Assembly (NCBI GenBank): GCA_040876835.1
Contig: JBBDOX010000007.1
Span: 7,916-71,915 of the forward strand
Length of the DNA: 64,000 bases
Source: Candidatus Anderseniibacteriota bacterium
GTDB taxonomy: Bacteria; Patescibacteriota; Andersenbacteria; UBA10190
Direction of reading: 5' to 3'
Shown: in pieces, positions 6,927 to 42,064 of the stretch
Position numbering within the stretch: position 1 is the first letter of the stretch
Layout of the letters: every line of letters starts with the position of its first letter
Notes under the pieces: model-generated
Seen by the model: the letters and a program-made list of their open reading frames with translations, nothing else
Database searches by the model: none
What the model was told of the DNA's origin: nothing
Position numbers and translations under genes: made by a program

Positions 6927-7765
6927 TCCCGCGCTTATCCGACATCACGCAACTTCGAGATTTTCTGGATCATCACAACATATCCCCTTCAAAGTCGATG
7001 GGACAGAATTTTCTCGTATCCGAAGAAGTAGTTGAAAGTATCGTAGAGGTAGCCCAAACGGGACCTCGCACCGTCACCGAGCTCGGCTCAGGGGTTGGTG
7101 TGCTCACTCAGGCCCTTGTTGAAAGCGGTTTTATGCTTCGAGCGATTGAAAAAGACGATGAATTTGCAGCCCTGTTGCCCTCGGTTATCTCTCCCAAAAA
7201 ACGTTCCAAGCTCACAGTTATTCATGAAGACTTAAAGGACGTTTCCTGGTCCCACGAAGAGCCCTATCAACTGATCGGAAATATTCCCTATAACCTGTCA
7301 GGATATATTTTCCGAATGCTTACTCAACTTGAACCTGCTCCAGTGCAGGCGATGCTGTTAGTTCAAAAAGAGGTAGGGCAGAGAGCTGTTGCCATACCGC
7401 CTGACATGAACCTTTTGAGTCTGGCAATTTCTCTGTGGGGGACCGCTCAGAAAGTGCTTAACGTCCCACCGAACTGTTTCTGGCCTCAACCCACCATTCA
7501 CTCGCAAATACTTCTTTTAGCTCCGCACACTCCGCCGTATCTTCCGGTAGAAAAACGAGAAGCAACTATGGGTATTGCCCGAGTATTCTTCCAGCAAAAA
7601 CGAAAACAAATCGGCGGAACTTTAAAGCGAGCACTGCACGCCCCGGACACCCTGCTATTACAAATAGAATCAGCCGGTATTTCACTTGATAGCCGGCCGC
7701 AGGAGCTCTCTGCTGAACAGTGGTACACTATATCAAAGCTATGCAAAAACGCTGGATTAGGCTGA
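6923..7765 (+). CDS. rsmA: 16S rRNA (adenine1518/1519-N6)-dimethyltransferase RsmA/KsgA
   Basis: 'MGQNFLVSEEVVESIVE' and the SAM-binding 'ELGSGVGVLTQAL' are present, with 'IGNIPYNLS'. The start overlaps the uvrD stop by 4 nt. Confidence 0.9.
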   Translation: MIPRLSDITQLRDFLDHHNISPSKSMGQNFLVSEEVVESIVEVAQTGPRTVTELGSGVGVLTQALVESGFMLRAIEKDDEFAALLPSVISPKKRSKLTVIHEDLKDVSWSHEEPYQLIGNIPYNLSGYIFRMLTQLEPAPVQAMLLVQKEVGQRAVAIPPDMNLLSLAISLWGTAQKVLNVPPNCFWPQPTIHSQILLLAPHTPPYLPVEKREATMGIARVFFQQKRKQIGGTLKRALHAPDTLLLQIESAGISLDSRPQELSAEQWYTISKLCKNAGLG

Positions 7766-9147
7766 TCATCATCGCCCTCCTTGTGCTGCTAACGACCCTT
7801 GGGGCATGGTGGTTTTTTAGTCGTTCATCAGATATACCTGATGAAGATGGCTTATCTTTTTTTCAGTTTCCTACACCCGGGGATCGAACTGACCCTTTCG
7901 AACAAGAAGAAAGCCCCACAGCCGACGATACATCTAGCTCAGACACGCAGCCTCCACAATCTACGGACAACATCGCGGTAACCGTGCGCTATCAACGAGG
8001 GGACTCGTTTTCCTTGAGCATTACTGAGGCTACCTACAGCCCAAATCAACCAACAATTGCCCAGTACACCCCTCCAGGCGATAGCCCTTATTCTCAAGTT
8101 CAACTCCTTGATGCCAGCGGATCTGTTATTTCAGAGTACCGATTCGCTATTTCCACCCGCGGAATATTAGAAGGGCCCAATATTCAACATCAAACACTTG
8201 ATCTTCCCGAGAGCACTGCGTATCTCATTCTCCCTTCACCCCAGAAACAGGCGACCCATGTACGAATTATGGGCGCCAACGGGCAAGAGTTTGATAGGCA
8301 GGCGCTACCGGACATACCCATTACTAGTCTGCCTAACAATCCTTTGGCTTGGCTACGTCAGCTCGTTCCTGCAAATGTTTGGGCTCAATCAGGTTCTGAC
8401 AGCCGTTTCACTATTGTCGTTATTAACGAAACTACCGTATCGCCCAGCTCAGTGGATCCTGTCATAGTCGTCACAAGAGGCATCCTCGGTATTGATCCCT
8501 GGCGAATGTTCGCGGGGCAAGTCGACGTGGTACCGATCTATAACCAAAGTACGCTCCTGGGCTGCAATGTTGGATCGGGACAACCAATTTCATGTAAAGA
8601 CGATGCGCATGTAATGAAAACAGTCGCCAAGGAAGTTCCAGATTGGGACGCTATCCTAGTGGTAACTAACCTCGATTGCAACGACTGCGGGTACGTAGGT
8701 GAGACCTTCCCGCCAATTGCTGTGGTTGGAACTGCGGCTACTGTAAACTTAATAGTTCATGAGCTGGGACACGCCATTGGCAAATTACTGGACGAGTACT
8801 TATATCAACATGCCGATTTTCCAGACCAGCAGCCCCGCTACACCGGACCAAATTGTTTTAAAACTATTGATGAATGTCGCGCGGCTCTTGAGCCCTACCT
8901 AGGAGATCCACATGGAGAGTGCGCCGCTGGCTGTAACGGGGGCTCTAATGTAACCTTCCGTCCCGCCACCCGCATCATGCACAACACATTTATCCCGTTG
9001 GTGTTTGGTCCAGTTGAGCGATGTATTATGGGCAAAGCGATTGCCAAGGGTATTGGTCGAACATATGAGTGTACCCCTCAAACTTCGCCCGTACCTGATC
9101 CTACTCCCACCAACACCCCTGGAACATATTGGGGATGGTATCGGTAA
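7741..9147 (+). CDS. Membrane-anchored secreted zinc metallopeptidase (HExxH), hypothetical
   Basis: The N-terminal TM anchor is 'WIRLIIIALLVLLTTLGAWWFF'. The C-terminal region carries 'VNLIVHELGHAIGKLLDEYLY' plus several Cys. The start could be ATG 7741 or GTG 7720. Confidence 0.5.
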   Translation: MQKRWIRLIIIALLVLLTTLGAWWFFSRSSDIPDEDGLSFFQFPTPGDRTDPFEQEESPTADDTSSSDTQPPQSTDNIAVTVRYQRGDSFSLSITEATYSPNQPTIAQYTPPGDSPYSQVQLLDASGSVISEYRFAISTRGILEGPNIQHQTLDLPESTAYLILPSPQKQATHVRIMGANGQEFDRQALPDIPITSLPNNPLAWLRQLVPANVWAQSGSDSRFTIVVINETTVSPSSVDPVIVVTRGILGIDPWRMFAGQVDVVPIYNQSTLLGCNVGSGQPISCKDDAHVMKTVAKEVPDWDAILVVTNLDCNDCGYVGETFPPIAVVGTAATVNLIVHELGHAIGKLLDEYLYQHADFPDQQPRYTGPNCFKTIDECRAALEPYLGDPHGECAAGCNGGSNVTFRPATRIMHNTFIPLVFGPVERCIMGKAIAKGIGRTYECTPQTSPVPDPTPTNTPGTYWGWYR

Positions 9148-9171
9148 AGATGTGATATATTAAGAGGTAAT

Positions 9172-10122
9172 ATGTCTCGACGAGTTATAATCATCCTTCT
9201 CGGCATCCTAATCTTGGGAGTTATAGGCGGTACTATCTATCTGGTTGTGCAGCGCTTGAGCGACCCAGGGGAGTCAACTATAGCAACACCGGGATCTGGT
9301 TCACTTCAGGAATCTGGTAGTGGCAGCCAGCAGATTGTTGATCCGACCGGAGATGATGACAACGACGGGCTTACAAACGCAGATGAAGCCCTGTGGGGCA
9401 CCGCCCGGACTAATCCCGACACTGACGGAGATGGATTCCTAGACGGGGATGAGGTGGCGGCCAATCACAATCCAACCATCGCGGGACCCAACGATATTCT
9501 CCCGCCTGATTTTCAGTTAGGTAAAGATATTAACCCCATTGAAGGCACCCCCGATGAGCCCCTCGCCGTTGCACAATTCTTCGTGAATAACCTAGACCTT
9601 TCAGGACCAAAGGAAAATGTAACTGAAGCTTATCAAAGAGCTTACCCGCCGGATCAGCGAACTCCCGAGACATTAAAACAATATGTAAATGAGCAACCGA
9701 TTGTGACTCAGCTACCCGCAGCAACCAGTAATGCCCTGCGACTGGTTAACACCCCCCTCCAACAAACCACCTACCTCTCTACTGCCGATGAAACAGTATC
9801 CTTCTTTTCGAACCAACCGCTTTTTCAATCAGTCATTAACGACCTATTCGGTAAAAATAATACTTCAAGCGTAGAAGGGCTAGCACTAATGGCCCGGATT
9901 CAGCAGGAAGCTCTCATCACGACGGCTGTTCCCCCTGAAGCAGAGAACCTTCACCGCCTCCTGCTGGGATATACCGAACTGTTGGCAGCCACGTTTGATC
10001 AAATGGCCCAATACAACACTGACCGGGTACGGGCTGTGCTGGCAATACGCCAGTGGGAGCAAGCAGATGCTCGATATATCCCTCTCATAAATCAAGAATT
10101 CGATCGCCTGAATACACGTTAA
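9172..10122 (+). CDS. Membrane-anchored protein with thrombospondin-type-3/dockerin-like Ca-binding Asp repeats (paralog A)
   Basis: The N-terminal TM is 'VIIILLGILILGVIGGTIYLVV'. The repeats are 'DPTGDDDNDGLTNADEALWGTARTNPDTDGDGFLDGDEVAANHNPTIAGPND'. The N-terminal half is strikingly similar to the ORF at 12333-13211. Confidence 0.55.
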   Translation: MSRRVIIILLGILILGVIGGTIYLVVQRLSDPGESTIATPGSGSLQESGSGSQQIVDPTGDDDNDGLTNADEALWGTARTNPDTDGDGFLDGDEVAANHNPTIAGPNDILPPDFQLGKDINPIEGTPDEPLAVAQFFVNNLDLSGPKENVTEAYQRAYPPDQRTPETLKQYVNEQPIVTQLPAATSNALRLVNTPLQQTTYLSTADETVSFFSNQPLFQSVINDLFGKNNTSSVEGLALMARIQQEALITTAVPPEAENLHRLLLGYTELLAATFDQMAQYNTDRVRAVLAIRQWEQADARYIPLINQEFDRLNTR

Positions 10123-10131
10123 GGTAATGCG

Positions 10132-11382
10132 ATGATGCCGTATAAGTCATTCCTAGGCATTCTGCTTCTTCTCTCGGGCGCAGCGTTTGCTTACGCAGCT
10201 GATACGGCTACTATACCGCTACCAACCAACACGCACTATGACGCATACATAAGTGCCCGGATTTACGAGAATCCGTTTTCCACTGACCCCACTCAAAGAG
10301 GTCAGGGGCAGGTCAAAGCTGAAACTGATGAGCTTCCCGACGTCAGTATTTTTATCATAAACAAGGATACCTGTTTTGAATCTGCCGGAGACCGGCTATC
10401 ATATCGCATCCTGCTACGCAACAATACGGATTTTCCGGCCAGTCAGTTGTTTTTAACTGATATCTTTCCCGCTTCCGCTCGTGTCATCGAATCTGTACCG
10501 ATCGCGCTTAATCCTCCCGGAACAAATCGTCTGGAATGGAATCAACGAGACAGCGTGCTTCCTCCCCGCGGATTCCTGGAATACTTTTTCACCCTTGAAA
10601 CGGGCAGCACAGCTCCTGAATTTACCAACCAGGCCGAAATAGAGTATGTCACAAATTCCTTAAAGCGCGCCTCGACTACTCATAAAATCATTAATACGTG
10701 CGGAGTACCGGATGTTCCGACTCAACCGCTTCCCAATAAACTTGCAGCCATTGTCTGTGATCGAGCAGAATCGCTATGTGTAAACTTTTTTCCTGAGCTG
10801 GGGGCAAATTTCAAGAAAGCCCAAGATCCAATTAATCAAGCCCGGATTTGCTCGCAGCAACAATATCGTGATTCTGAGCTATGTGTACAAAATCTTCCTA
10901 CCCTAGGGGCGCGCTTTAATGAAGCCAAGCCGGTGATTAAACCCGGAGAGTGTCGAGTGCAAGAAGATCTCCAGCACGAATTTGATCCTCTTGCTATCGG
11001 ACCGCCGGTCGAAAGCACGATCTGCGAATCAAATGGGTATCCTGCCTCTGTGTTAGCTTCTGCTCCTGAGCCGATTAAGGCTACCCGTAACGAAATTCGA
11101 CTACCTGATACCAGCGTTCTTGCGCCTGGTGAAAATACAGTAATTAACGAAGCACTAACGCGCGGATCCGCCTGTTCTGGCGCACCCGGCGACCCGTACT
11201 GGGCCTTTGATTGCTCCTGTAGCTGTAACGACCTTCTGTTTGTGCCGGGGGGACGGTCCGAGGGACGTATTCTAAATTGTCAGCTCATCAAACAAATTAA
11301 TCGAGGAGATATCTATACTACTCAACTCGAGTGCCTGGCTGACATTCGTCATAACCAGGCTCCAACACGAACAAACTTATAA
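10132..11382 (+). CDS. Secreted protein with a DUF11-like beta-sandwich region and a Cys-rich C-terminal tail (hypothetical surface protein)
   Basis: The signal peptide is 'MMPYKSFLGILLLLSGAAFAYA'. 'SYRILLRNNTDFPASQLFLTDIFPASARVIESVP' resembles the DUF11 conserved repeat. The C-terminus has many Cys ('CSGAPGDPYWAFDCSCSCNDL'). Confidence 0.45.
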   Translation: MMPYKSFLGILLLLSGAAFAYAADTATIPLPTNTHYDAYISARIYENPFSTDPTQRGQGQVKAETDELPDVSIFIINKDTCFESAGDRLSYRILLRNNTDFPASQLFLTDIFPASARVIESVPIALNPPGTNRLEWNQRDSVLPPRGFLEYFFTLETGSTAPEFTNQAEIEYVTNSLKRASTTHKIINTCGVPDVPTQPLPNKLAAIVCDRAESLCVNFFPELGANFKKAQDPINQARICSQQQYRDSELCVQNLPTLGARFNEAKPVIKPGECRVQEDLQHEFDPLAIGPPVESTICESNGYPASVLASAPEPIKATRNEIRLPDTSVLAPGENTVINEALTRGSACSGAPGDPYWAFDCSCSCNDLLFVPGGRSEGRILNCQLIKQINRGDIYTTQLECLADIRHNQAPTRTNL

Positions 11383-11387
11383 CGTAA

Positions 11388-11412
11388 GAAAAAACCGCAT
11401 CCAAGAATGCGG
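11388..11412. terminator. Hairpin terminator shared by the convergent genes at 10132-11382 (+) and 11445-12200 (-)
   Basis: A-run 11388-11394, stem 'ccgcat'/'atgcgg', loop 'ccaaga'. On the minus strand the hairpin is followed by 'ttttttctt'. Confidence 0.5.
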
Positions 11413-11444
11413 GTGTGCGCTGCTGTGCTTCCTCTAAGGATGAG

Positions 11445-12200
11445 TCAGCGTCGCTGCGCGGTGCGAGCTACCTGGGTGAACTGCTTATTGGCCGGATCGA
11501 ATCCCACCATCACAGCCACCCGAGCCGGGCCTCGCACTTGTCCACTAAGCGTCGTCAGGCGAAGAGCAACGGTGCCGTCCTTGCCCTCCTCCCACTGAGG
11601 CACGCCCAACAGCAGCGCACCTCCCAAGTAGGGGATTTCGTCCCATTCCTGCTTGGTAGGTGAAAAGGCCAGAATGCCTCGAAACGCCGTGAGCTCTCCC
11701 ATGGGCTCGATGACAGCGAAGTAGTATTCCTGTCCCTCGATTGGCCGCAAGTACATCACCCCGCCCCGCCGACTCGAATTCTCCTTCAGGACGTAGGCAA
11801 GGTCCGAGATCTCAGTGGCGGGTTCGTAGTGGTAGGCGTTAACGCCCGTCACCACGTAGATGCGCGAACCCGACACGAACACTGCTCGCACGGGATCCGG
11901 AAAGCCCCTCAGCTGCCGCCCACCGGGCATCTTCATCAGCTCATGAAGCTGGAGCGGAGCCCGAGCCTGCCGACCAAAACCTGAGCTAGTGCGCAGTTTG
12001 GCCAGATTTTCTGCCTGTTCGCGCTCGGTTTCGGCGCGACCACCCCACGCGCGGATGAGGGTGCAAGTTCCCAGGCTGGTCTTGATCTCGGTGGCCTGAA
12101 ACTTTCCTTCAGCAGGAACGTCGGGCACCTCCGCCAGCAGGGGAACAGAGCAACACAGAAAAAGCGCTGCCGCCAGCACGATTGCAACGAGGATCTTCAT
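11445..12200 (-). CDS. Putative secreted lipoprotein encoded by a compositionally foreign gene (GC roughly 60%, high GC3)
   Basis: A 251 aa ORF with signal peptide 'MKILVAIVLAAALFLCCS' (lipobox-like LFLC). Codons are dominated by ctg/gcc/ggc/atc, whereas the window background is about 48% GC. The RBS 'ggaga' lies 5 nt upstream of the ATG. Confidence 0.55.
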   Translation of the reverse strand: MKILVAIVLAAALFLCCSVPLLAEVPDVPAEGKFQATEIKTSLGTCTLIRAWGGRAETEREQAENLAKLRTSSGFGRQARAPLQLHELMKMPGGRQLRGFPDPVRAVFVSGSRIYVVTGVNAYHYEPATEISDLAYVLKENSSRRGGVMYLRPIEGQEYYFAVIEPMGELTAFRGILAFSPTKQEWDEIPYLGGALLLGVPQWEEGKDGTVALRLTTLSGQVRGPARVAVMVGFDPANKQFTQVARTAQRR

Positions 12201-12282
12201 TGCGTTCTCCAGGTTTCCAAAGGAACAGGAGCCCTCGTGGCTTAATTACGCCCATCCTTTCTTCTCTCTACTATATAACATA

Positions 12283-12300
12283 TCTCCTGTCAACAGGAGA
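12283..12300. promoter_or_regulatory. 18 bp perfect palindrome TCTCCTGTCAACAGGAGA overlapping the promoter of paralog B
   Basis: Perfect dyad symmetry lies about 33 bp upstream of the start at 12333, next to the -10-like 'tatataac'. Confidence 0.4.
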
Positions 12301-12332
12301 AGCAATAGAATATCTCATGGTATGATTCATGA

Positions 12333-13211
12333 ATGAGCACTGCGAACGCTTTAGGAGTGAAGGTTGCCCTTATTACTACGATTGTCGTCCTGGCTATCTT
12401 TGGGATATTTATAGGAGCAAAAAAGCTGTTCTTTACTCCCGTGGAAGAACCAACTTTACCGTCAGTAAATTCTCCTGCAATTGAAGCTGAAGATCGGGAT
12501 AAAGACGGCCTCCCTGACCTCATTGAAAATATCTATAAATCAGACCCGGATAACCCCGACACTGACGGGGATGGTACATTAGATGGAGACGAGATCGCTC
12601 TTCAACGGGATCCGACACTACCCGGCCCGAACGACCAGTTTTCGGTTGATTTCATTACTCAATCAGGCATTTATTCTGATACTTTCACTTCTCGGTATCT
12701 TCAAACTCTCCCTCCGGATGTCTCTCGCCAAAGTATTTTAGATAAAAACCAAGTGGCCGCTTTCGTAGAAGCGAATAAAGGTATCCTCCTGCCGGACGTG
12801 GCTGTCACGATTGTTCCCGGGGAGGGGAAAGAAGTTGTTCAAGCCTACCTGGAAGCGATTTCTGCCACCCATAATACCGCTATAGTGCCTATCACCAGCA
12901 CCGACATTGATACAGCATTTCGACAGCACTACACATTAAATAATCCTGCTCCCTTAGAGGGAATTATCGCGCAACTTGAACAAAACGTAGGGACACTCGA
13001 GAACGTTGCTGCCCCCAGTGAGGTAGAGGAGCTGCATATTCAGCTTGTTTCAGCCTCTCAGGCCCTGCTTAACAACTCACAGCTTCTTCAAGGTATTCAC
13101 GAAGACTTTGTTGGTGGACTCATTGGAGCCCGTAATATAGAGGAGCTTGGTGCCGTATTCCAAGCTACAGCTGAAAAGATTATTGCTCTCGAACAACAGT
13201 ACGAGCTATAG
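12333..13211 (+). CDS. Membrane-anchored protein with thrombospondin-type-3/dockerin-like Ca-binding Asp repeats (paralog B)
   Basis: The TM is 'VALITTIVVLAIFGIFIGA'. The repeats are 'DRDKDGLPDLIENIYKSDPDNPDTDGDGTLDGDEIALQRDPTLPGPND', parallel to paralog A. Confidence 0.55.
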   Translation: MSTANALGVKVALITTIVVLAIFGIFIGAKKLFFTPVEEPTLPSVNSPAIEAEDRDKDGLPDLIENIYKSDPDNPDTDGDGTLDGDEIALQRDPTLPGPNDQFSVDFITQSGIYSDTFTSRYLQTLPPDVSRQSILDKNQVAAFVEANKGILLPDVAVTIVPGEGKEVVQAYLEAISATHNTAIVPITSTDIDTAFRQHYTLNNPAPLEGIIAQLEQNVGTLENVAAPSEVEELHIQLVSASQALLNNSQLLQGIHEDFVGGLIGARNIEELGAVFQATAEKIIALEQQYEL

Positions 13212-13231
13212 ATATATCTCGCGAGGAGAGT

Positions 13232-14629
13232 GTGATATACTATTTTCATATTAGAGGTCGTATGCAAAGCTATTTTCTGACTAGGGGAAACTCTTTTTTA
13301 GTAGGCATTCTTTTTTGCCTCATAGCATTTTTAGTTCCCCGAGCTGCTTTCGCCGACCCTCACGCTCTGTTCTACACCACCGTAGGGCAACAACAACTCT
13401 TCTTTAATACCCTGGCGGCTCTGGATCAGGCTGATTATGTCGAGCCAAATACTAACAGGCAGGAGCTAGTGCAACAACGGACTGCTACCGGATTCAGTGA
13501 AACGTCTGATCCGTCCATCACTGCCACACATACTGATCTGGCAAGTATTTTGACGCGCAGCATTACACTTGAAGGACAGGATCTCTGGACAGCATATATC
13601 CAATACCAGTTCGCCCTCGAGGATTTTCGACGAGATAACACGAGTGCGCTTGTAACATTGTTTTGTGAACGCGGTTTAGGAGTACTTGGCTGTAAACAGG
13701 GAGAAGAGAAGAATCCAAAGAATGCACAGTTGCGATTGGAGGCAGCATACAACAGTAATCCGTTGGCCGAGGAAGAATATAGACGTGACGCCGGCAATGC
13801 CGCTCTAGCTTCGGGTACGGCTGCCGATCAAGCTGACAGACGGGAGATTCTAAAAGGAAGCCCGGTAAATCCTAACGTATACAGACCATATAGCCCTGAT
13901 ATTGCCCAGTTGCGGAGCACTGCAAACACTTCCGAAAAAGCGGCGGCTGTTGATCGTCTCGTCGCGTCGGCAACTAGCTCTGATGGGAGCGTTTCAACAC
14001 TTTTTAAGGGCTTAGAGATTAATGGGGGTAGGGCATCTCTACCGCCGGGAGCTTCTTTAGACGCATACATGAGTAAAATGTCTGCCGCCATTAGCGCCCC
14101 CGCTCAAATTGACAACATTCGAGACCGAGCTGAGGCTAAGGCTAAAACTGTAAATGAAGAAGTCAATGTCGATGGAGCCTTAGCTGATGTCAGACCTAAG
14201 TTAAATGTTTACAGAGGAACAATCGGTACGATTGACAAGCAAATTGTCAGCCCGGCCTGGAACAAAAAGGCGGAAGGTGAGCAAGCAGTTGCAGCTGCCG
14301 CTGTCACAGAAACCAACTCTATTTATACTGATCCAAACACTGGCGCCGCAAGAGATCAGCGTCTTGTCAAGGAGGGTGAGCGCAGTGGTGTTGCCGGAGC
14401 TACCACGGATAAAACAATAGCAACGGGACAGGTATTAGCCGCTACCGACTTTCCCGACCCTACTCCTCAACCAAGAACACCCATAAATGACCCCGCTGCC
14501 TTTTTCCACGAAGTACCGATAAAACGTTTTTACTCTCTAAACCGAGGCGGAAATCAACGGGGGGGCTGCCAGTGTTCCCTTGATGGAATTGTTAGTGGTT
14601 TCGGGAACGATATTCTTAACAATCCGTGA
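13232..14629 (+). CDS. Secreted/surface protein, hypothetical (first gene of the T4SS-like locus)
   Basis: A 465 aa product with N-terminal signal/TM 'FLVGILFCLIAFLVPRAAFA' and a C-terminal 'GGCQCSLDG' motif. The ATG at 13262 with RBS 'agagg' is an alternative start. Confidence 0.45.
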   Translation: MIYYFHIRGRMQSYFLTRGNSFLVGILFCLIAFLVPRAAFADPHALFYTTVGQQQLFFNTLAALDQADYVEPNTNRQELVQQRTATGFSETSDPSITATHTDLASILTRSITLEGQDLWTAYIQYQFALEDFRRDNTSALVTLFCERGLGVLGCKQGEEKNPKNAQLRLEAAYNSNPLAEEEYRRDAGNAALASGTAADQADRREILKGSPVNPNVYRPYSPDIAQLRSTANTSEKAAAVDRLVASATSSDGSVSTLFKGLEINGGRASLPPGASLDAYMSKMSAAISAPAQIDNIRDRAEAKAKTVNEEVNVDGALADVRPKLNVYRGTIGTIDKQIVSPAWNKKAEGEQAVAAAAVTETNSIYTDPNTGAARDQRLVKEGERSGVAGATTDKTIATGQVLAATDFPDPTPQPRTPINDPAAFFHEVPIKRFYSLNRGGNQRGGCQCSLDGIVSGFGNDILNNP

Positions 14630-16794
14630 TGAGTAGCTCTTTTCTCAAACTCTCAGGAGTAGGCATAGGAACTTTTCTGATACTCGTACTGCCGCTGTAC
14701 GCTGATGCACAAGCAGTGCAAAGAACAAGAGTGGGGGACCTAGAAGCCCCTTTGGAGCTCGGAACAATCACTGGTCAACAGTTGAAAGATAAAGGATGTG
14801 TAGTCAAGGACCGGATTGATGTTGAGGGCGCCTCAACCGCTATAGATCTGGTTGATAGGCCTGTTGGTTGGAGATATGTGTACCCTGCGGATATCAGTGA
14901 CTATATCGACGATAGCATAGGAATTGACTTCGAGCATCCTGTTTTCTTTTTCTGTGAACCAGGGGTAGTAAGTAAAGACCTTGCTCCAGACGAAGACGCG
15001 GATGATGGTTGGTTGGGCGAAAAAACTCTTGTTCGCTGGGCAATAATGGAGATAGCTCGAGCTGTTGCCCAAGTTGGTTTATGGGTCCTGGCTTTAGGGG
15101 GCGCTCTTTTGGGCTGGTCTCTAGGTATTAGAAATTACGCCAGCAGCGATATTGTGCAAAATGGCTGGCCTTTTGTTCAAGGCATTGCGAACCTTGGATT
15201 TATTGTTGCCTTATTGGCTATTGCCCTTCTTATGACCTTGCGCATTGAAGTGGGTGGTGGGGTAAAGAGGTTGCTGCCACGCCTATTTATCGCAGCTCTC
15301 CTTATTAACTTTAGTCTTCTGTTTGGAGAAATCATTATTGATAGTACTCGTCTGCTAATGGCAATCATGATGAGGGCGATCACGGGCAGTAGAGGAGTGA
15401 CGTTTGTAAACTTAGGTACAGAGATTGTTCGAGGATCCGACCTTCTTAATGAATTATTTCACATTGGCACTGCTGGCCCCATCCCAGGATTTGCTTGGAA
15501 AGAAACAGTTGCCACTAATGATCAGAATGTGTTGCGTAGCATTCAAGCTGCAATTCTGGTCTGGGCTGTGGCTATTTCCGTTTTCTTTATTGCAGCCGCT
15601 TTAATAGTTCGCTTTATTATTCTTCTCATTTTACTGATCGCCTCTCCGGCCGCTTACTTAGGCATGGCGATTCCAGGAGCTAAACAGTTAACGGACAAAT
15701 GGTGGTCAAACTTTCTTAAGTGGGCCTTCTTCGGACCAATTTCTTTATTCTTCCTCCTTCTTCTTATTCGCACCACGAACTCTAGTATCGTATCAACGGG
15801 GGTAAAACCGGGCGCGCTTGAAGGGGGAATCATTCCGATTATATTCACAGTAGTAATGTCCGTTATTGCAGTTATAGGAGGATTTCAACTAGGCGGCGTG
15901 GGAAGTGCTGCGACTATGAATGCTATTAAAAAAGGTACCGGGAAGATGGGTCGCGGAGCATATATTGCCACGGGTGCCAGGGGTGGGGTGCGGCAAGTTC
16001 GCGACTTTAGTCGTGAACTAAAGAGCGATGTGGCGAAATCAGCTCGCTCCGGAAAGATGTTTGGTGAGGGCAGGGGCCAAGCAGCTCGTAGTTCCGCTTC
16101 CTGGGTAGCTCGCTTTGTTGCCGGTCCAAAACGTAATGCGGATGGCACACTCGCGAAGGGTGAAACATCTATGGGTACACGCGCGGGTAGCGCAATTGCA
16201 CGACGACTTCCAAGCGGCGCCGGGGATAGGGAATCTATTGCTGCAGCAAGAAAAATAGTCAGCAACAAGAGCAGTCGATCAAATCTACGAGAGGCGACCC
16301 GAACCGAAGAAGCTGCTAAGAAAGCTGAGGCAAGTGGTGATACGGCTGGGGCTCAATCTCTGAGAGATCAAGCTCAAGTTCATCGTGATGCAGGGTTAGG
16401 CGCCCTCTTGAAGCAAGCTGGTCTTGATCGCAATAATCCAGCTGATCAGGGCAAGATCATTGCAAAACTTTCAGACAGCAACTTTATCTTGAATGTACCG
16501 CCCGAGGCCTTAAAAGGCTTTATGGAACACGGCACCGATGGGGAGAAAAATGCTGTTGGAGCCGCCCTGGCTACAGCGGATATGTCTGCTGTGACGCCAA
16601 ATAAACGTAAGGAGGTAATTAAAGCTGTTGTTGACTCCGGCAACACGCAAATTCTGAAGACTGTAGTTAACAATGTTGATTTTGTTGAGCATATGGGTGG
16701 AAGCGATAAAGCAAAAGTCTTCCAGCTGGACGACCAAGCACTGACAACACGTCTTGTACGAACTATGCGTACTGCGGAGCAAAGAAAAAAATAG
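14626..16794 (+). CDS. VirB6/TrbL-like polytopic membrane protein (T4SS channel component candidate) with a long basic disordered C-terminal tail
   Basis: A signal peptide is followed by at least 6 hydrophobic helices (for example 'GLWVLALGGALLGWSLGI', 'LGFIVALLAIALLMTLRI', 'LFIAALLINFSLLFGEIIIDSTRLLMAIMM'). The last 300 aa or so are rich in K/R/A/G. Gene order matches PrgH-PrgI-PrgJ of Gram-positive T4SSs. Confidence 0.5.
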   Translation: MMSSSFLKLSGVGIGTFLILVLPLYADAQAVQRTRVGDLEAPLELGTITGQQLKDKGCVVKDRIDVEGASTAIDLVDRPVGWRYVYPADISDYIDDSIGIDFEHPVFFFCEPGVVSKDLAPDEDADDGWLGEKTLVRWAIMEIARAVAQVGLWVLALGGALLGWSLGIRNYASSDIVQNGWPFVQGIANLGFIVALLAIALLMTLRIEVGGGVKRLLPRLFIAALLINFSLLFGEIIIDSTRLLMAIMMRAITGSRGVTFVNLGTEIVRGSDLLNELFHIGTAGPIPGFAWKETVATNDQNVLRSIQAAILVWAVAISVFFIAAALIVRFIILLILLIASPAAYLGMAIPGAKQLTDKWWSNFLKWAFFGPISLFFLLLLIRTTNSSIVSTGVKPGALEGGIIPIIFTVVMSVIAVIGGFQLGGVGSAATMNAIKKGTGKMGRGAYIATGARGGVRQVRDFSRELKSDVAKSARSGKMFGEGRGQAARSSASWVARFVAGPKRNADGTLAKGETSMGTRAGSAIARRLPSGAGDRESIAAARKIVSNKSSRSNLREATRTEEAAKKAEASGDTAGAQSLRDQAQVHRDAGLGALLKQAGLDRNNPADQGKIIAKLSDSNFILNVPPEALKGFMEHGTDGEKNAVGAALATADMSAVTPNKRKEVIKAVVDSGNTQILKTVVNNVDFVEHMGGSDKAKVFQLDDQALTTRLVRTMRTAEQRKK

Positions 16795-16797
16795 CCT

Positions 16798-17259
16798 ATG
16801 CTTTTACCTCAGGATCCATACCTTAGTACTCCCGCCGGCTCCATCGCGATAATGACAGATGAAGCGCGAGAAGGAGCGTACATAGAAAAATTGCACGGGC
16901 TCCCTCCGCAATCGTTTGAACTTGCAACTTCGATGAAAACTGGAGCGTTTATACGCGGCGTGGTGAAGCAGTTCAATATTCCCGTTGAACGTTCTCCATT
17001 TGTTGCATTTGCTGTCTTACAAATTCTGGTGAAGGAAAGATCCTTAGCTGGATTGGCGCCCACCCTCTCTTCCACTGCCAACTTCCCACAGCAAATTTCG
17101 CAGCAAGTTGCTCGGGAAATTGAACGGGAGCTGTTTTCATTAATTGGATCGGAGTTATCTCAATCGTCAAACACCCAACAGCGCAACCCCCAAGTTAACC
17201 TGAACAATGTTTTGGATCTTAAACAAGCTCCTCCCAAACCTCCAGAAGTTCCTCGCTAG
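16798..17259 (+). CDS. Hypothetical protein inside the T4SS-like operon
   Basis: A 153 aa ORF tightly packed between the VirB6-like and PrgI-like genes. No recognisable motif. Confidence 0.4.
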   Translation: MLLPQDPYLSTPAGSIAIMTDEAREGAYIEKLHGLPPQSFELATSMKTGAFIRGVVKQFNIPVERSPFVAFAVLQILVKERSLAGLAPTLSSTANFPQQISQQVAREIERELFSLIGSELSQSSNTQQRNPQVNLNNVLDLKQAPPKPPEVPR

Positions 17260-17268
17260 AAGCAAGGC

Positions 17269-17721
17269 ATGCGCTTTCAAGTACCACAATTCGTATATGT
17301 TGAGGACAAGGTTATAGGACCTTTTACTCTGAAGCAGTTTTTTATGTACATCGGGGCAGCGATGGTGCTTGTCCCTGTATACATTTTCTCCGACCTGTCT
17401 CTCTTTATTACGGTTGCAATTCCGGTGGCCGGCACCGCTGCGGCATTTGCTCACTTTAAGATTAACAACAAAAGCCTGTTTACCGTCATCACGAATGCCC
17501 TGGGATACTACACATCTTCACCGGTTTATGTATGGCAACGTACGAATAAACTGCAGCCTTTGAAAATCACCGACCCGGCGTGGGATGAGATAGCCACCGC
17601 TAGCCAGCTGGGGGAAAAAGCATCCCCCCTAGCCGCACAATTGAGGGCCCTGGAGACGTCAGGTAACGTCGTTAATAGCGATGACGTTGCAGATGCGCTG
17701 GATCCGGAAGCAACCCCATAA
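17269..17721 (+). CDS. PrgI/VirB3-like small membrane protein
   Basis: The N-terminus 'MRFQVPQFVYVEDKVIGPFTLKQFFMYIGAAMVLVPVYIF' matches the PrgI-family pattern: a conserved VP...D.IfGplTlrQ segment followed by 2 TM helices. It sits immediately upstream of VirB4. Confidence 0.55.
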   Translation: MRFQVPQFVYVEDKVIGPFTLKQFFMYIGAAMVLVPVYIFSDLSLFITVAIPVAGTAAAFAHFKINNKSLFTVITNALGYYTSSPVYVWQRTNKLQPLKITDPAWDEIATASQLGEKASPLAAQLRALETSGNVVNSDDVADALDPEATP

Positions 17722-17745
17722 GCCATGCTATACTAGTCAGACGCT

Positions 17746-18441
17746 ATGGTAGAAGATATGAAGAGCAAGGAAAAGAAAGGAAAGCCGGCTCAGGACTTGG
17801 TGCGGATTTCCGAAATCCGGGAGGGGGTTGTTATCCTCTCAGATGCTGGCATGAGAGCTATTCTCCTAGTTTCATCGGTTAACTTTGCCCTCAAGTCCGA
17901 AGACGAGCAGAATGCCATCATCTATGCGTACCAGGAATTTATTAATTCCCTGGATTTTCCCATCCAGATCAGTATTTCTTCCCGTAAAATGGACATCACC
18001 CCATACCTAGAAGAAGTAAAGCACAAACGAGATACCCAGAAAAATGAACTATTGCGTCTGCAAATGAACGAATACATAGACTTCGTAGGAGGATTAGTAG
18101 AGAACAGCAATATCATGTCAAAAACATTCTTTGTTACGATTTCGTTCTCGGTAGTGCAAAACAAGAAAGAAAACTTTCTAGGCCGTATATTTAAAGGAGT
18201 TAAAAGCGCTACCGGGAAGCACACGTTTAACGACCAGGAATTCGAACATGCCCGTAATCAACTTTTTCAACGAGTAGAGCAGGTAGCTGTAGGCTTGCGT
18301 GGTATTGGACTGCGTGTTGTGCCTTTACAAACCCAGGAACTACTGGAACTTTTTTACAATATGTATAACCCCTCCACTTCTCGCAACCAGCGTCTGCGCG
18401 GTCTGGGAGAGCTTCACATCCAGGAAACCAGTTCCAGCTAG
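17746..18441 (+). CDS. VirB4/TraE-like conjugation ATPase, N-terminal domain fragment (split gene)
   Basis: 'LVRISEIREGVVILSDAGMRAILLVSSVNFALKSEDEQNAIIYAYQEFINSLDFPIQISISSRKMDITPYL' matches the N-terminal domain of Gram-positive VirB4 proteins (PrgJ/TcpF/Orf16 type). It ends at a TAG 20 nt before the next ATG, which is in a different frame. Confidence 0.6.
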   Translation: MVEDMKSKEKKGKPAQDLVRISEIREGVVILSDAGMRAILLVSSVNFALKSEDEQNAIIYAYQEFINSLDFPIQISISSRKMDITPYLEEVKHKRDTQKNELLRLQMNEYIDFVGGLVENSNIMSKTFFVTISFSVVQNKKENFLGRIFKGVKSATGKHTFNDQEFEHARNQLFQRVEQVAVGLRGIGLRVVPLQTQELLELFYNMYNPSTSRNQRLRGLGELHIQETSSS

Positions 18442-18463
18442 TGTGGTGTGCTATTATTAGCTC

Positions 18464-20299
18464 ATGGGGATTTTTCAAGATACATTCGCTTTCCTGCGCG
18501 GCTCTAAAAAGAAGGGGCAGCAAACAGAGGCAGAGGAGGATGCAACGCTCAAAAATTACAACGAGGGCGTAGCTTCTGTGCGGGACATTATTGCTCCCGC
18601 CGGATTTAAGGTAAACCCCAAGTCCATTGAAATTGACGGAAAGTATGCGTCAACGCTGTTTGTAATAACATACCCGCGCTACCTCGACACCAACTGGTTC
18701 TCTCCAATTGTAAACTTTGACATTGAATTTGACGTAGGGATGTTTATTTACCCTCAGGACTCCGCCGCTATTTTAAAACAGCTGAGAAAGCAGGTTACCC
18801 GGGTATCGGCTTCTCTTTCTATGCAGGCGGAGGGAGGCAAGGTCCGTGATCCCCAACTGGAAACTGCCTATCAGGACATTGAAGAGCTGCGGGATCGCCT
18901 CGTGCAGGGGACGGAGCGTTTTTACCAGTACGGGCTATACATAACGCTGTACGCGAATTCAGAAATAGAGCTAGAACAAACCGTCTCTCAAGTGGAAGTT
19001 TTACTTGAAGGGCGCCTGGTGTATGCAAAGCCAGCTCTCTTTCAAGCCCTGCAAGGATTCACCTCCACATTGCCTTTAGGTCACGACCGTCTAGGAGTTT
19101 CAACAAACATGAATACTTCGCCGCTTTCTACGACGTTTCCTTTTGTCAGCTCAGACCTTACCAGCAACAGCGGGGTTCTGTATGGTATTAACCTTCATAA
19201 TAACAGCCTGGTGCTCTTTGATCGGTTCAGCTTAGAAAATGCCAACATGGTTATTTTTGCTAAATCTGGTGCGGGTAAAAGCTACACCGTGAAACTTGAG
19301 ATTTTGCGTAGTCTAATGTTCGGCACTGAGGTAATCGTCATTGATCCAGAGCAGGAGTATAAATATTTGTCGGAGGCGGTAGGTGGCAGTTACCTGCGTA
19401 TTGCTATCGCGTCTGATCACCGCATCAATCCTTTCGATTTACCAGAGCTTGGGGAAGATGAAAACCCTGAGGCAGTATTAAGGGAGAATATAACCCGTTT
19501 AATCGGACTTGTTTCCTTGATGGCCAACGGCGTGTCTCCCGAAGAAGAATCGCTCGTGGATAAAGCGCTATGGGAATCTTACGCTATTAAAGATATTACT
19601 CCCGGTGCCCGATGGGCAAAGCCGGAGGTGCCGACCTTACAGGATTTTTACAATATCCTGCGCGACATGCAGGGGGGACAGAGTATTGCTTTACGTATCC
19701 AGCGGTATGTGGAAGGAACATTCGCCGGCGTATTTAACCGCCCTACGAATATTGACCTGGATAACCAGCTCATTGTCTTTAACATTCGGGACATGGAAGA
19801 AGAGCTGCGACCGATCGCCATGTATGTGGTACTTGGATTTATCTGGAATCGGGTGCGCAGCCAGCTTAAGCGACGCATTCTGGCCGTGGATGAGGCCTGG
19901 ATCATGATGCAAAACGAAGAGTCAGCCAAGTTTTTGTTTTCGATGGCCAAGCGAGCTCGCAAATATTACCTGGGGGTTACCACAATCACTCAGGACATTA
20001 CGGACTTTTTAGGCTCCAAATATGGCAAGCCTATTGTCACCAACTCTTCAATTCAGCTACTTCTTCGTCAGTCACCGGCGGCTATCGATCTTCTTTCGGA
20101 GGTATTTTACTTAACTGACCATGAGAAGTTTCGTCTACTTGAAAGCGACGTGGGAGAAGGTATCTTCTTTGCCGGACTCAAGCACGTAGCAATTAAAGTG
20201 GTTGCCAGTTACGCTGAAGATCAGGTGATTACCTCTGATCCGCAGCAAATTCTAGCTATTGAAGCAGCTAAAAAAGAATTAGCGCAGATAGAAACCTAG
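18464..20299 (+). CDS. VirB4/TrbE/CagE-like T4SS ATPase, central and C-terminal ATPase domains
   Basis: Walker A is 'MVIFAKSGAGKSYTVK' and Walker B 'ILAVDEAW'. 'IDGKYASTLFVITYPRYLDTNWFSPIVNFDIEFDVGMFIYPQD' is typical of the VirB4 middle domain. Confidence 0.8.
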   Translation: MGIFQDTFAFLRGSKKKGQQTEAEEDATLKNYNEGVASVRDIIAPAGFKVNPKSIEIDGKYASTLFVITYPRYLDTNWFSPIVNFDIEFDVGMFIYPQDSAAILKQLRKQVTRVSASLSMQAEGGKVRDPQLETAYQDIEELRDRLVQGTERFYQYGLYITLYANSEIELEQTVSQVEVLLEGRLVYAKPALFQALQGFTSTLPLGHDRLGVSTNMNTSPLSTTFPFVSSDLTSNSGVLYGINLHNNSLVLFDRFSLENANMVIFAKSGAGKSYTVKLEILRSLMFGTEVIVIDPEQEYKYLSEAVGGSYLRIAIASDHRINPFDLPELGEDENPEAVLRENITRLIGLVSLMANGVSPEEESLVDKALWESYAIKDITPGARWAKPEVPTLQDFYNILRDMQGGQSIALRIQRYVEGTFAGVFNRPTNIDLDNQLIVFNIRDMEEELRPIAMYVVLGFIWNRVRSQLKRRILAVDEAWIMMQNEESAKFLFSMAKRARKYYLGVTTITQDITDFLGSKYGKPIVTNSSIQLLLRQSPAAIDLLSEVFYLTDHEKFRLLESDVGEGIFFAGLKHVAIKVVASYAEDQVITSDPQQILAIEAAKKELAQIET

Positions 20300-40359: not shown

Positions 40360-40815
40360 TTAGACTACACACAAGGCGGCCGCAAGTGCATCTGCAGCAT
40401 CGTCTGGTTGGGGGATATCTGCAAGGTGAAGCTGTTGAGTGACAGCGGCCTGAATCTGCTCTTTACGAGCGGCCCCGTACCCCGTGATTCTCGATTTAAT
40501 TTGCAGTGGAGTCAGAGATTCTACAGTTATGTGATGCTTACGTAGAATATACACCAACACCCCTCGTGCTTGTGCTGTGATCATAGCGGTTTTGCTGTTA
40601 TTCCCAAAGTATACTCGTTCTACTACGGCTATATCAGGGTGAGTATCGTTAATAAGGTGTTCTAAGTCTTCTCCTAACATAAGTAGTCGGTCTTCGTCGC
40701 TTTGGTGTTTAGGGGTAGTAAGACAGCCACAGCGGACAAACAAATGCTGGCTGCTGGTGTTGATAACACCAAAGCCAGTGCGCGCAATACCTGGGTCTAA
40801 TCCTAAAACGATCAT
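40360..40815 (-). CDS. ruvC: Holliday junction resolvase RuvC
   Basis: 'MIVLGLDPGIARTGFGVI' and 'AVVERVYFGNNSKTAMITAQARGV...DAADALAAAL' are present. Confidence 0.9.
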   Translation of the reverse strand: MIVLGLDPGIARTGFGVINTSSQHLFVRCGCLTTPKHQSDEDRLLMLGEDLEHLINDTHPDIAVVERVYFGNNSKTAMITAQARGVLVYILRKHHITVESLTPLQIKSRITGYGAARKEQIQAAVTQQLHLADIPQPDDAADALAAALCVV

Positions 40816-41383: not shown

Positions 41384-42064
41384 TTATAGGCGAAGAATAT
41401 CGAGTTTACGAGCGACTATTTGAAGGTTAGACATAAGCGGTTCGTGACCAAGGGCGACAATGCCATACAGTGGTCCTTGAATAGTAGTATTACTGATACT
41501 GCAATTTGTCGTTTGGCTATAAACACCCACATTCCCATTAGAAATAATACTATCGTGGACTTCAGCCGCACTCCCTGACAAGCACGAGATCGCTGGGTCG
41601 CCATGCTTAAGCAGGGTATATTCGATTGTAGCCTTTCCTCCTGAAGCAATTTCAATACCATTCCAGGTTTGGTTGTCAGGATGGGATTCATTGGACACAA
41701 ATCGTATTCTTCGGGTAGGGGTTCCAATGGCCACCAGCGTACCTTCTACGACGAGCTTACTATGTTCATGAAAAGCGATAGTGGTTCCGGCGGGAATGGT
41801 TAGGTTTGAATTAGGGGGAATGATGACAGTGCCGGCTATGGCAATGACCTTTTGAGAAGAATCTATGACGGTGTTATTTGTAATACGGGAAGGTAGATAT
41901 TGGGCAGTGGGAAAGAGGGGTGTGTGACGATTTGGCTCAGTAACAAAGCTTGGATGAGCTAAACGCTCAGTCCAGGTAGTTGCCTCTATTTTTTCGAATA
42001 GGAGAATAAACGGCACTATTAAAAGCGCAATAGTAGCAATAATTGTAGGAGTCTGAAATTGCAT
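41384..42064 (-). CDS. Membrane-anchored protein with right-handed beta-helix-like repeats (hypothetical)
   Basis: An N-terminal TM is followed by repeats rich in N/T/I/G ('IIPPNSNLTIPAGTTIAFHEHSKLVVEGT', 'ISNGNVGVYSQTTNCSISNTTIQG'). Confidence 0.4.
   Translation of the reverse strand: MQFQTPTIIATIALLIVPFILLFEKIEATTWTERLAHPSFVTEPNRHTPLFPTAQYLPSRITNNTVIDSSQKVIAIAGTVIIPPNSNLTIPAGTTIAFHEHSKLVVEGTLVAIGTPTRRIRFVSNESHPDNQTWNGIEIASGGKATIEYTLLKHGDPAISCLSGSAAEVHDSIISNGNVGVYSQTTNCSISNTTIQGPLYGIVALGHEPLMSNLQIVARKLDILRL

Follow-up and report, generated by a model that had tools for sequence, protein, structure and literature searches.

A minus-strand gene encoding a 251-aa protein (HGC251) has very probably been acquired horizontally by an Andersenbacteria genome, as a self-contained monocistronic cassette inserted antisense between the genes g416 and TSP3b of a T4SS-like operon. 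Andersenbacteria are uncultured members of the Parcubacteria group (Patescibacteria/CPR), and the gene was found in a 64-kb stretch of DNA from this lineage, the whole of which is hereafter called the window. HGC251 exhibits a foreign nucleotide composition, is absent at the orthologous junction of related genomes, carries its own translation and termination signals, and is a near-orphan. Because neither a donor nor a close homologue was found, composition and phyletic pattern are the only grounds for inferring the horizontal transfer. An identical protein is deposited at NCBI as MEX0649552.1 (hypothetical protein WD200_00960, Candidatus Andersenbacteria bacterium), encoded on a 114-kb MAG contig. 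The features discussed throughout the text are listed in Table 1.

Table 1. Features in and around the HGC251 insert (positions are those of the 64-kb window, unless residues are given).
Feature	Position	Strand	Remarks
TSP3a	9172-10122	plus	TSP3-repeat protein, paralogue of TSP3b
g416	10132-11382	plus	Left flank; secreted DUF11-repeat-like surface protein
Intrinsic terminator of HGC251	11386-11412	minus	7-bp stem CCGCAUU...GAUGCGG (11412-11395), then UUUUUU
HGC251 CDS	11445-12200	minus	Intact 251-aa ORF with ATG start; near-orphan, foreign composition
Predicted Sec-type signal peptide	HGC251 residues 1-23		Likely cleavage between LLA and EV; by inspection
HGC251 5' leader	12201-12256	minus	56 nt, GC 0.54
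AT-rich divergent intergenic region HGC251/TSP3b	12257-12332		76 nt, GC 0.34; holds the inverted repeat and the TSP3b-proximal motif
Inverted repeat	12283-12300		TCTCCTGT-CA-ACAGGAGA; 8-nt arms, non-palindromic 2-nt spacer
Extended -10-like motif	12318-12326	plus	TGGTATGAT; ends 6 nt before the TSP3b ATG
TSP3b	12333-13211	plus	Right flank; membrane-anchored, bacterial thrombospondin-type-3 repeats
Conserved core of the Patescibacteria MPF-FATA-like T4SS operon	14626-20299	plus	Downstream of the insert
Polytopic membrane protein, 722 aa	14626-16794	plus	T4SS core
PrgI/VirB3-like	17269-17721	plus	T4SS core; preceded by g153
TraC-like	17746-18441	plus	T4SS core
VirB4 ATPase	18464-20299	plus	T4SS core

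The most pronounced feature of HGC251 is its composition. A previous inspection of the same DNA (hereafter, the sequence-only reading) had described a high-GC ORF with GC-biased third codon positions on a background of about 48% GC, and the computed values agreed with this description: the gene has a GC content of 0.610, with 0.667, 0.472, and 0.690 at the first, second, and third codon positions, respectively, in a window of GC 0.480. The 48 non-nested host genes of the same window have a mean GC of 0.479 and a mean GC3 of 0.443 (sd 0.048, maximum 0.542), against which HGC251 yields z values of 5.6 (GC) and 5.1 (GC3), and no other ORF of at least 150 aa in the 64-kb window exhibits a comparable composition. 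Synonymous codon use was shifted to CTG, ATC, GTG, and CGG, as observed for Leu (CTG in 53% vs. 19% in the host), Ile (ATC in 90% vs. 27%), and Val (GTG in 61% vs. 26%), and the codons TTA, CTA, ATA, AGA, and CGT do not occur in the gene. The shift had also been said to coincide with the CDS. A two-change-point likelihood model applied to positions 10400-13300 located the edges of the compositional island at 11409 and 12180 (2-log-unit support of 11388-11453 and 12134-12258, respectively; log-likelihood ratio 24.8), and the compositional step therefore matches the CDS to ~50 bp. As to the coding nature of this segment, the GC3 > GC1 > GC2 order is of the coding-frame type, only 18 out of 5,000 shuffled versions of this sequence contained a stop-free run as long as that of HGC251, and an end-to-end homologue exists (P0002, described below), on the basis of which HGC251 was counted as a real gene.

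HGC251 sits in the variable, surface-protein-encoding 5' part of a conserved, origin-proximal VirB4/PrgI T4SS-like operon. The order of the plus-strand genes is UvrD, RrnaAD, g475, TSP3a, g416, the HGC251 site, TSP3b, g465, the 722-aa polytopic membrane protein, g153, and the PrgI/VirB3-like, TraC-like, and VirB4 genes, and HGC251 is encoded on the strand opposite to this otherwise co-directional operon. The modules flanking the insert had been regarded as paralogous, which was corroborated by the alignment of TSP3a with TSP3b (26% identity, E = 8e-14). The genes dnaA, dnaN, and recF are located at 29.9-33.9 kb of the window, where the cumulative GC skew also reaches its minimum, placing HGC251 at ~18 kb from oriC. 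Both the repertoire of the locus (VirB4, PrgI/VirB3-like, TraC-like, and polytopic membrane components) and its distance of ~10-20 kb from dnaA resemble those of the MPF-FATA-like T4SS clusters of Patescibacteria, which are often located near dnaA (Quinonero-Coronel et al. 2025, PMC12102498), and in Ca. Southlakia, the one species examined, epibiotic growth required VirB4, VirB3, and VirB6 (PMC12102498). HGC251 itself departs from this likeness, as it does not belong to the conserved components: none of the 81 sister clusters contains it, and it exhibits no Pfam or NCBIfam homology to T4SS profiles (VirB2/3/4/6/8, TrsD, PrgI, and others). Judging from these sequence comparisons, the gene would at most be a lineage-specific accessory of the T4SS cluster.

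The occurrence of HGC251 in sister genomes, which the sequence-only reading had named as a check, was surveyed in 81 sister loci covering Andersenbacteria, Moranbacteria, and relatives, 80 of them obtained from a GTDB-wide VirB4 scan (93% to 58% VirB4 identity) and one, L083, via its g416 orthologue. No tblastn match to HGC251 was detected in the 80 loci at E <= 1e-5. A profile HMM combining HGC251 and P0002, run on 9,751 stop-to-stop ORFs of at least 60 aa (1.48 Mb, from the 81 sister loci and the window), retrieved the window gene only, with the next best hit at E = 0.066. The junction was empty in five loci, in which the g416-like and TSP3b-like genes are separated by spacers of 22 bp (L012), 25 bp (L029), 26 bp (L003), 44 bp (L017), and 94 bp (L083), whereas the g416/TSP3b spacer of the window spans 950 bp and contains HGC251 on the reverse strand. 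Three of these loci (L083, L012, and L029) share exactly the window's order of TSP3a, g416, and TSP3b, and can hence be used as empty sites. In the 15 closest loci, essentially all operon genes are tightly packed on one strand, apart from two genes inverted in L013 and two minus-strand ORFs that carry no annotation. The single-gene horizontal acquisition proposed by the sequence-only reading is thus sustained by the foreign composition, the empty junctions, and the absence from all 81 loci. The acquisition had further been called recent, of which the lineage-specific insertion stands, and the timing holds in a relative sense only, because the nearest comparators show considerable divergence here (32-55% aa identity for the flanking genes). 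These same values, set against the 92% identity of VirB4 to that of L003 (to which the surface-protein genes show the 32-55%), indicate that the surface repertoire of the locus evolves fast. Nucleotide alignment of the junctions with the sister loci was uninformative, and neither a g416 protein search nor a TSP3b metagenome scan for closer relatives gave anything above 39-47% identity; with no closer strain in the searched collections, the breakpoints cannot be fixed to the base.

These comparisons also bear on whether HGC251 could have resided in the T4SS locus since ancient times, with loss from every sampled relative and a high GC content maintained by selection. The CDS of P0002 (GC 0.52) is likewise richer in GC than its 5' flank (0.38), and the gene order in the region is plastic, as such a history would have it, but independent loss would be required in all 81 loci. 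The GC excess, moreover, is largest where codon changes are synonymous, at third positions (GC3 +0.25), a pattern not explained by selection on the protein, and both the orientation opposite to the operon and the SD-type initiation region, atypical of the host, argue against long residence. We therefore consider an ancient origin at this locus highly improbable.

A sharp compositional step in a MAG-derived sequence, around a gene that occurs once in all databases, may also arise from an assembly or binning chimera, i.e., from a high-GC segment of another organism spliced in by the assembler. A second assembly came out in favor of a genuine insertion: the Logan contig SRR27977662_123120 (24 kb), produced from a single run by an independent assembler, was 100% identical over 20,669 bp (window 1445-22113), a span that includes both junctions. 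A chimeric join would switch genomes, rather than resume the same syntenic operon after 0.9 kb at an intergenic spacer. What lies between the junctions is an entire gene, RBS and terminator included, that precisely fills an intergenic site, and the protein collection held no second copy on other contigs of the same sample. There is consequently very little to recommend a chimera as the source of this gene.

The insert is equipped with signals of its own. The terminator hairpin lacks a U-tract on the plus strand and accordingly serves HGC251 only, and a canonical Shine-Dalgarno GGAG (plus-strand 12207-12210) is located 6 nt upstream of the HGC251 ATG. In the host, by comparison, an SD-like 4-mer of any type precedes 13 of 49 genes. 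The flanks of the gene had been viewed as native, which was contradicted by the sister loci: as neither the terminator nor the SD leader has a counterpart in the 22-94 bp sister spacers, and the host mostly does without SD, both elements appear to have come in together with the gene, and the leader probably arrived with it. The promoter/RBS side (12201-12282) had been described as AT-rich, which is correct for the divergent region beginning at 12257 (GC 0.34) and incorrect for the leader itself (GC 0.54).

No canonical sigma-70 promoter was matched by a promoter scan of positions 11000-12700. A candidate -10 element of HGC251 would be TATAGT (minus strand, 12275-12270). The TTGACA contained in the nearby inverted repeat was tried as its -35 element and rejected, since it is located 12 nt from TATAGT, too close for a canonical promoter. 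This inverted repeat, previously reported as an 18-bp perfect palindrome, turned out to be an 8+2+8 repeat and a statistically unremarkable one, with 17 perfect 8-nt-arm repeats logged in the window (~11 of them distinct) vs. ~6 in shuffles; it does not recur as a motif elsewhere, and it is possibly an operator or a hairpin. The TSP3b-proximal element, in turn, belongs to a motif of the form TGnTAnnnT (extended -10-like) that was observed upstream of 11 of 49 genes vs. ~1.6 expected, a sevenfold enrichment. This motif often ends a few bases before start codons, and it is also present upstream of VirB4, TSP3a, and the TraC-like gene.

The vicinity of the insert was further inspected for traces of an integration mechanism. 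Flanking direct and inverted repeats (TSD, TIR) were found at chance level only, the best being the 6-bp TATAAC, for which 1.5 such matches are expected, and no integrase or transposase was seen among the profile-scanned ORFs around HGC251. There was likewise no indication of tRNA-linked integration or of an RNA gene at the insert, the tRNAs of the window being located at 2.1-2.7 kb, 9 kb away, and positions 10500-13500 containing no Rfam match at E <= 1. Cargo or a remnant of a mobile element (a miniature transposon, a phage moron, or an integron-like cassette), with mobility functions gone or located elsewhere, could nevertheless be envisaged. The compact promoter-RBS-gene-terminator architecture is moron-like, ORFan status is typical of the mobilome, and the sister operons contain further small genes that seem to be mobile, such as the identical PF05635 copies of L023. 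These points are to be weighed against the chance-level repeats, the lack of mobility genes among the scanned ORFs, and the absence of HGC251 matches in IMG/VR, INPHARED phages, PLSDB plasmids, and PHROGs (no significant match; best E = 0.042 over 29 residues). We deem such an origin unlikely, and it constitutes a mechanism for the horizontal acquisition of the cassette, not an alternative to it.

The search for relatives covered ~15 billion proteins in all, including a k-mer-indexed search of 5.8 billion that was run twice, and an exhaustive phmmer search of 1.84 billion representative proteins. The sole relative found was P0002, a metagenomic singleton of 249 aa, encoded on a 980-bp contig that offers no gene context, which aligns end to end with HGC251 at ~30% identity (E = 2e-4 database-wide and 6e-13 in pairwise BLASTP). 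The motifs LHE, PxGRxxRG, FRGI, PTKxEW, and WEExKDG are common to both proteins. No further homologues were found in JGI metagenome contigs. At permissive E-values, Pfam (E <= 10), PHROGs, and PADLOC, all run with HGC251 and P0002, and NCBIfam (E <= 0.1), run with HGC251 only, returned no significant match, and neither did a PDB profile search (best E = 0.48). The AlphaFold2 models of HGC251 were unusable, with pLDDT of 38 for the single sequence and 33 for the two-sequence alignment, and agreed solely on mixed beta strands and a few helices.

The results of these searches did not uphold the kind of donor considered in the sequence-only reading, a high-GC member of Actinobacteria or Proteobacteria: apart from P0002, at 30% identity and GC 0.52, the ~15 billion proteins contained no homologue from Actinobacteria, Proteobacteria, or any other sequenced genome or MAG. 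The companion idea of an epibiont of Actinobacteria comparable to Saccharibacteria does not fit the organism either, which belongs to Andersenbacteria, a lineage for which the literature gives no known host. A more specific version would have HGC251 captured from the organism's own high-GC host cell, with the T4SS or the competence machinery as a possible route. CPR bacteria are believed to live as epibionts, the gene is located in a locus essential for epibiotic growth in Ca. Southlakia (PMC12102498), and a donor GC of at least 60% would fit many Actinobacteria or Proteobacteria. Opposed to this are the missing donor homologue, the absence of a known host, and the 52% GC and AT-flanked contig of the sole relative. 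Sister CPR loci themselves reach a GC of 0.55, with single genes at GC 0.61 and GC3 0.78 (L023), which makes a CPR or CPR-phage donor equally possible. Capture from a host cell is, in our assessment, purely speculative and decidedly improbable.

The N-terminus of HGC251 was examined for export signals. It reads MKILVAIVLAAALFLCCSVPLLA, followed after the predicted cleavage site by EVPDVPAEG, and comprises a basic residue, a hydrophobic core, Pro at -4, and Ala at -1; by inspection, the layout is K2, then I3-L15, then P20-L-L-A23 ahead of Glu. The predicted mature protein would have ~228 aa, and the hydrophobic stretch of 21 residues could alternatively act as an uncleaved anchor. The protein had been described as a secreted, lipoprotein-like product on account of its 'LFLCCS' stretch. 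The secreted part of this claim is consistent with the predicted Sec-type signal peptide, whereas the lipoprotein part was rejected, since inspection of LFLCCS against the lipobox [LVI][ASTVI][GAS]C revealed violations at both Cys16 and Cys17. HGC251 resembles bacterial lipoproteins (Lgt/LspA substrates) in its N-terminal positive residue and in a hydrophobic segment containing these two Cys residues, and it differs from them in that -1 is Leu for Cys16 (with Phe at -2) and Cys for Cys17, in place of Gly, Ala, or Ser. No Cys occurs among the N-terminal 45 residues of P0002, which displays R2, a hydrophobic core, and a classical signal peptidase I site with cleavage between AHA and A. Given the violated lipobox in HGC251 and the lack of a signal-peptide Cys in P0002, the family looks like Sec/SPase I-exported proteins, not lipoproteins, as far as the two sequences indicate.

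The event was also placed in the context of other deviant genes in these loci. Among 1,055 ORFs of at least 150 aa from the sister loci and the window, 10 (~1%) have a GC3 at least 0.20 off the locus median, and other small, lineage-specific inserts are found in sister T4SS operons: in L023 a PF05635 gene present as two identical copies of 453 bp, in L083 a PF05635 gene on the minus strand and an additional gene of 235 aa, and in L025 an AAA_14/DUF4143 ATPase. In view of these frequencies and inserts, the acquisition of HGC251 is a fairly ordinary event. The PF05635 genes (23S rRNA-intervening-sequence proteins) of L023 and L083 are similar to HGC251 in being small, lineage-specific insertions between genes of the same operon, in some cases antisense and with a GC content that departs from the background. 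The families are, however, unrelated: PF05635 proteins are cytoplasmic four-helix bundles, whereas HGC251 bears a predicted signal peptide and, according to its low-confidence models, would contain mixed beta strands and a few helices. A closer parallel is offered by single-gene genomic islets and phage 'moron'-like ORFans, with which HGC251 shares the one-gene compositional island that relatives lack at the conserved syntenic junction, an RBS and an intrinsic terminator of its own, the opposite orientation, and the lack of a detectable function or family. It differs from them in having no detected phage, plasmid, or mobile-element context and no att or TSD repeats, and in its location inside a T4SS-like operon near oriC of a streamlined CPR genome. 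HGC251 is a clean example of a known phenomenon, the horizontally acquired ORFan islet.

Under the favored explanation, i.e., horizontal acquisition of a self-contained cassette, a segment of ~0.86-0.9 kb composed of terminator, CDS, and Shine-Dalgarno leader would have come from a donor with a GC content of roughly 60% or higher and would have inserted antisense into the short g416/TSP3b spacer, within the fast-evolving 5' part of the T4SS-like operon. HGC251 would then be transcribed from the AT-rich segment 12257-12310 and translated via its GGAG, and the product would presumably be exported by the Sec pathway and cleaved by signal peptidase I near Ala23. Outside the cytoplasm, it may act as an accessory surface protein or exoprotein beside the variable TSP3-repeat, DUF11-like, and M64-like proteins. 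TSP3b appears to keep its own host-type promoter-like motif at the start codon, and the insertion thus need not silence the downstream T4SS genes, which would stay expressed.

A more far-reaching proposal is that HGC251 is a host-interaction factor (an adhesin, effector, or immunity protein) that was either taken from a high-GC host of this Andersenbacteria lineage or is aimed at it, and that joined the variable surface module of the T4SS-like apparatus on which the epibiotic growth of CPR bacteria depends. We give this proposal very little credence. If it were true, the sequence and composition of HGC251 would be a molecular tracer of the CPR-host pairing, and the protein would found a new exported family.

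As a single ORFan with no identifiable donor, HGC251 is valued here as a candidate for follow-up and not as a discovery. Under the favored explanation of a horizontally acquired cassette, it represents a well-delimited case in which a CPR genome, normally seen as streamlined, took up and kept a foreign gene, inside a locus tied by the literature to epibiotic growth and with the signals of the downstream operon apparently intact. The 5' part of the T4SS-like operon is, in several lineages, a recurrent landing site for small accessory genes.

The order of the surface-protein genes in the window (7720-13211) and in the sister T4SS loci L003, L013, L017, L012, L029 and L083 varies by lineage. The arrangement TSP3a, g416, TSP3b, in which two paralogous TSP3-repeat protein genes flank the DUF11-repeat-like g416, is found in the window, L012, L029 and L083, and the arrangement g416, TSP3b, TSP3a in L003, L013 and L017. 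The window surface proteins have only 32-55% identity to those of L003, as against 92% for VirB4 by tblastn (93% in the table of related loci). This lineage-dependent order, together with the gap in identity, indicates that the surface-protein genes form a module that is hypervariable and undergoes rearrangement, located upstream of the conserved T4SS core. The 475-aa secreted protein of this module carries a zinc-metalloprotease-type HExxH motif (VHELGHAIG), and its weak match to Peptidase_M64 (E = 0.0035) did not pass the cut-off; it is possibly a surface protease.

Small inserts were also found in sister operons (see table). In L023, two PF05635 genes within one T4SS operon are 453 bp each and 100% identical to one another, with a GC of 0.45 against 0.55 for the locus, and seem to represent a small gene that is mobile or was duplicated recently. 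The forest-soil locus L083, whose gene order matches that of the window, bears a 10-nt inverted repeat (GTAATTCGTA/TACGAATTAC) in its empty g416/TSP3b spacer. Among L004-L082, many GTDB representative MAGs that group with Andersenbacteria or Moranbacteria by VirB4 and synteny carry the title 'uncultured Candidatus Saccharibacteria bacterium' or 'uncultured Bdellovibrionales bacterium', and these titles are probably automated mislabels.

Coordinates of features in the window and the sister T4SS loci
Feature	Location	Strand	Context
475-aa secreted protein	window 7720-9147		variable module
TraC-like gene, 231 aa	window 17746-18441		T4SS operon
TraC-like orthologue	L003 9282-9977		
TraC-like orthologue	L012 9165-9908		
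TraC-like orthologue	L066 1701-2396		
PF05635 (23S rRNA-intervening-sequence protein) gene, 138 aa, copy 1	L023:3597-4049		inside T4SS operon
PF05635 gene, 138 aa, copy 2	L023:8198-8650		inside same operon
PF05635 gene, 125 aa, single-gene insert	L083:15895-16272	minus	between PrgI-like and TraC-like genes
Extra unannotated gene, 235 aa	L083:10303-11010		after TSP3b
AAA_14/DUF4143 ATPase with HTH, 373 aa, insert	L025:8173-9294		between PrgI-like and TraC-like genes
TGnTAnnnT	window 9153-9161		upstream of TSP3a
TGnTAnnnT	window 12318-12326		upstream of TSP3b
TGnTAnnnT	window 18449-18457		upstream of VirB4
TGnTAnnnT			upstream of 40360-40815
TGnTAnnnT			upstream of 41384-42064

Between 28238 and 33869 of the window, yidC on the minus strand is followed by dnaA, dnaN and recF on the plus strand, and the cumulative GC-skew minimum coincides with a switch in gene orientation at ~29-30 kb, which makes this the likely oriC. 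On the plus strand, the T4SS operon (4.8-20.3 kb) runs towards this probable origin and would therefore be transcribed head-on to replication; the inserted high-GC gene HGC251, unlike the operon, would be co-directional with replication.

In the TraC-like gene and its orthologues, GC3 often exceeds that of most genes in the same operon, reaching 0.50 in the window against ~0.41-0.43 in several upstream genes, 0.56 against ~0.42 in L003, and 0.80 against a median of 0.57 in L066; codon bias linked to expression is a possible cause. Of the 49 window genes, 11 have an extended -10-like motif, TGnTAnnnT, in the 40 nt before the gene (~1.6 expected), and the motif often ends just 3-12 nt from the start codon. 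Any SD-like 4-mer was detected for only 13 of the 49. The closeness of this motif to the starts, combined with the scarcity of SD-like 4-mers, suggests that promoters in this Andersenbacteria genome sit close to their genes and that mRNAs are leaderless or have very short leaders.
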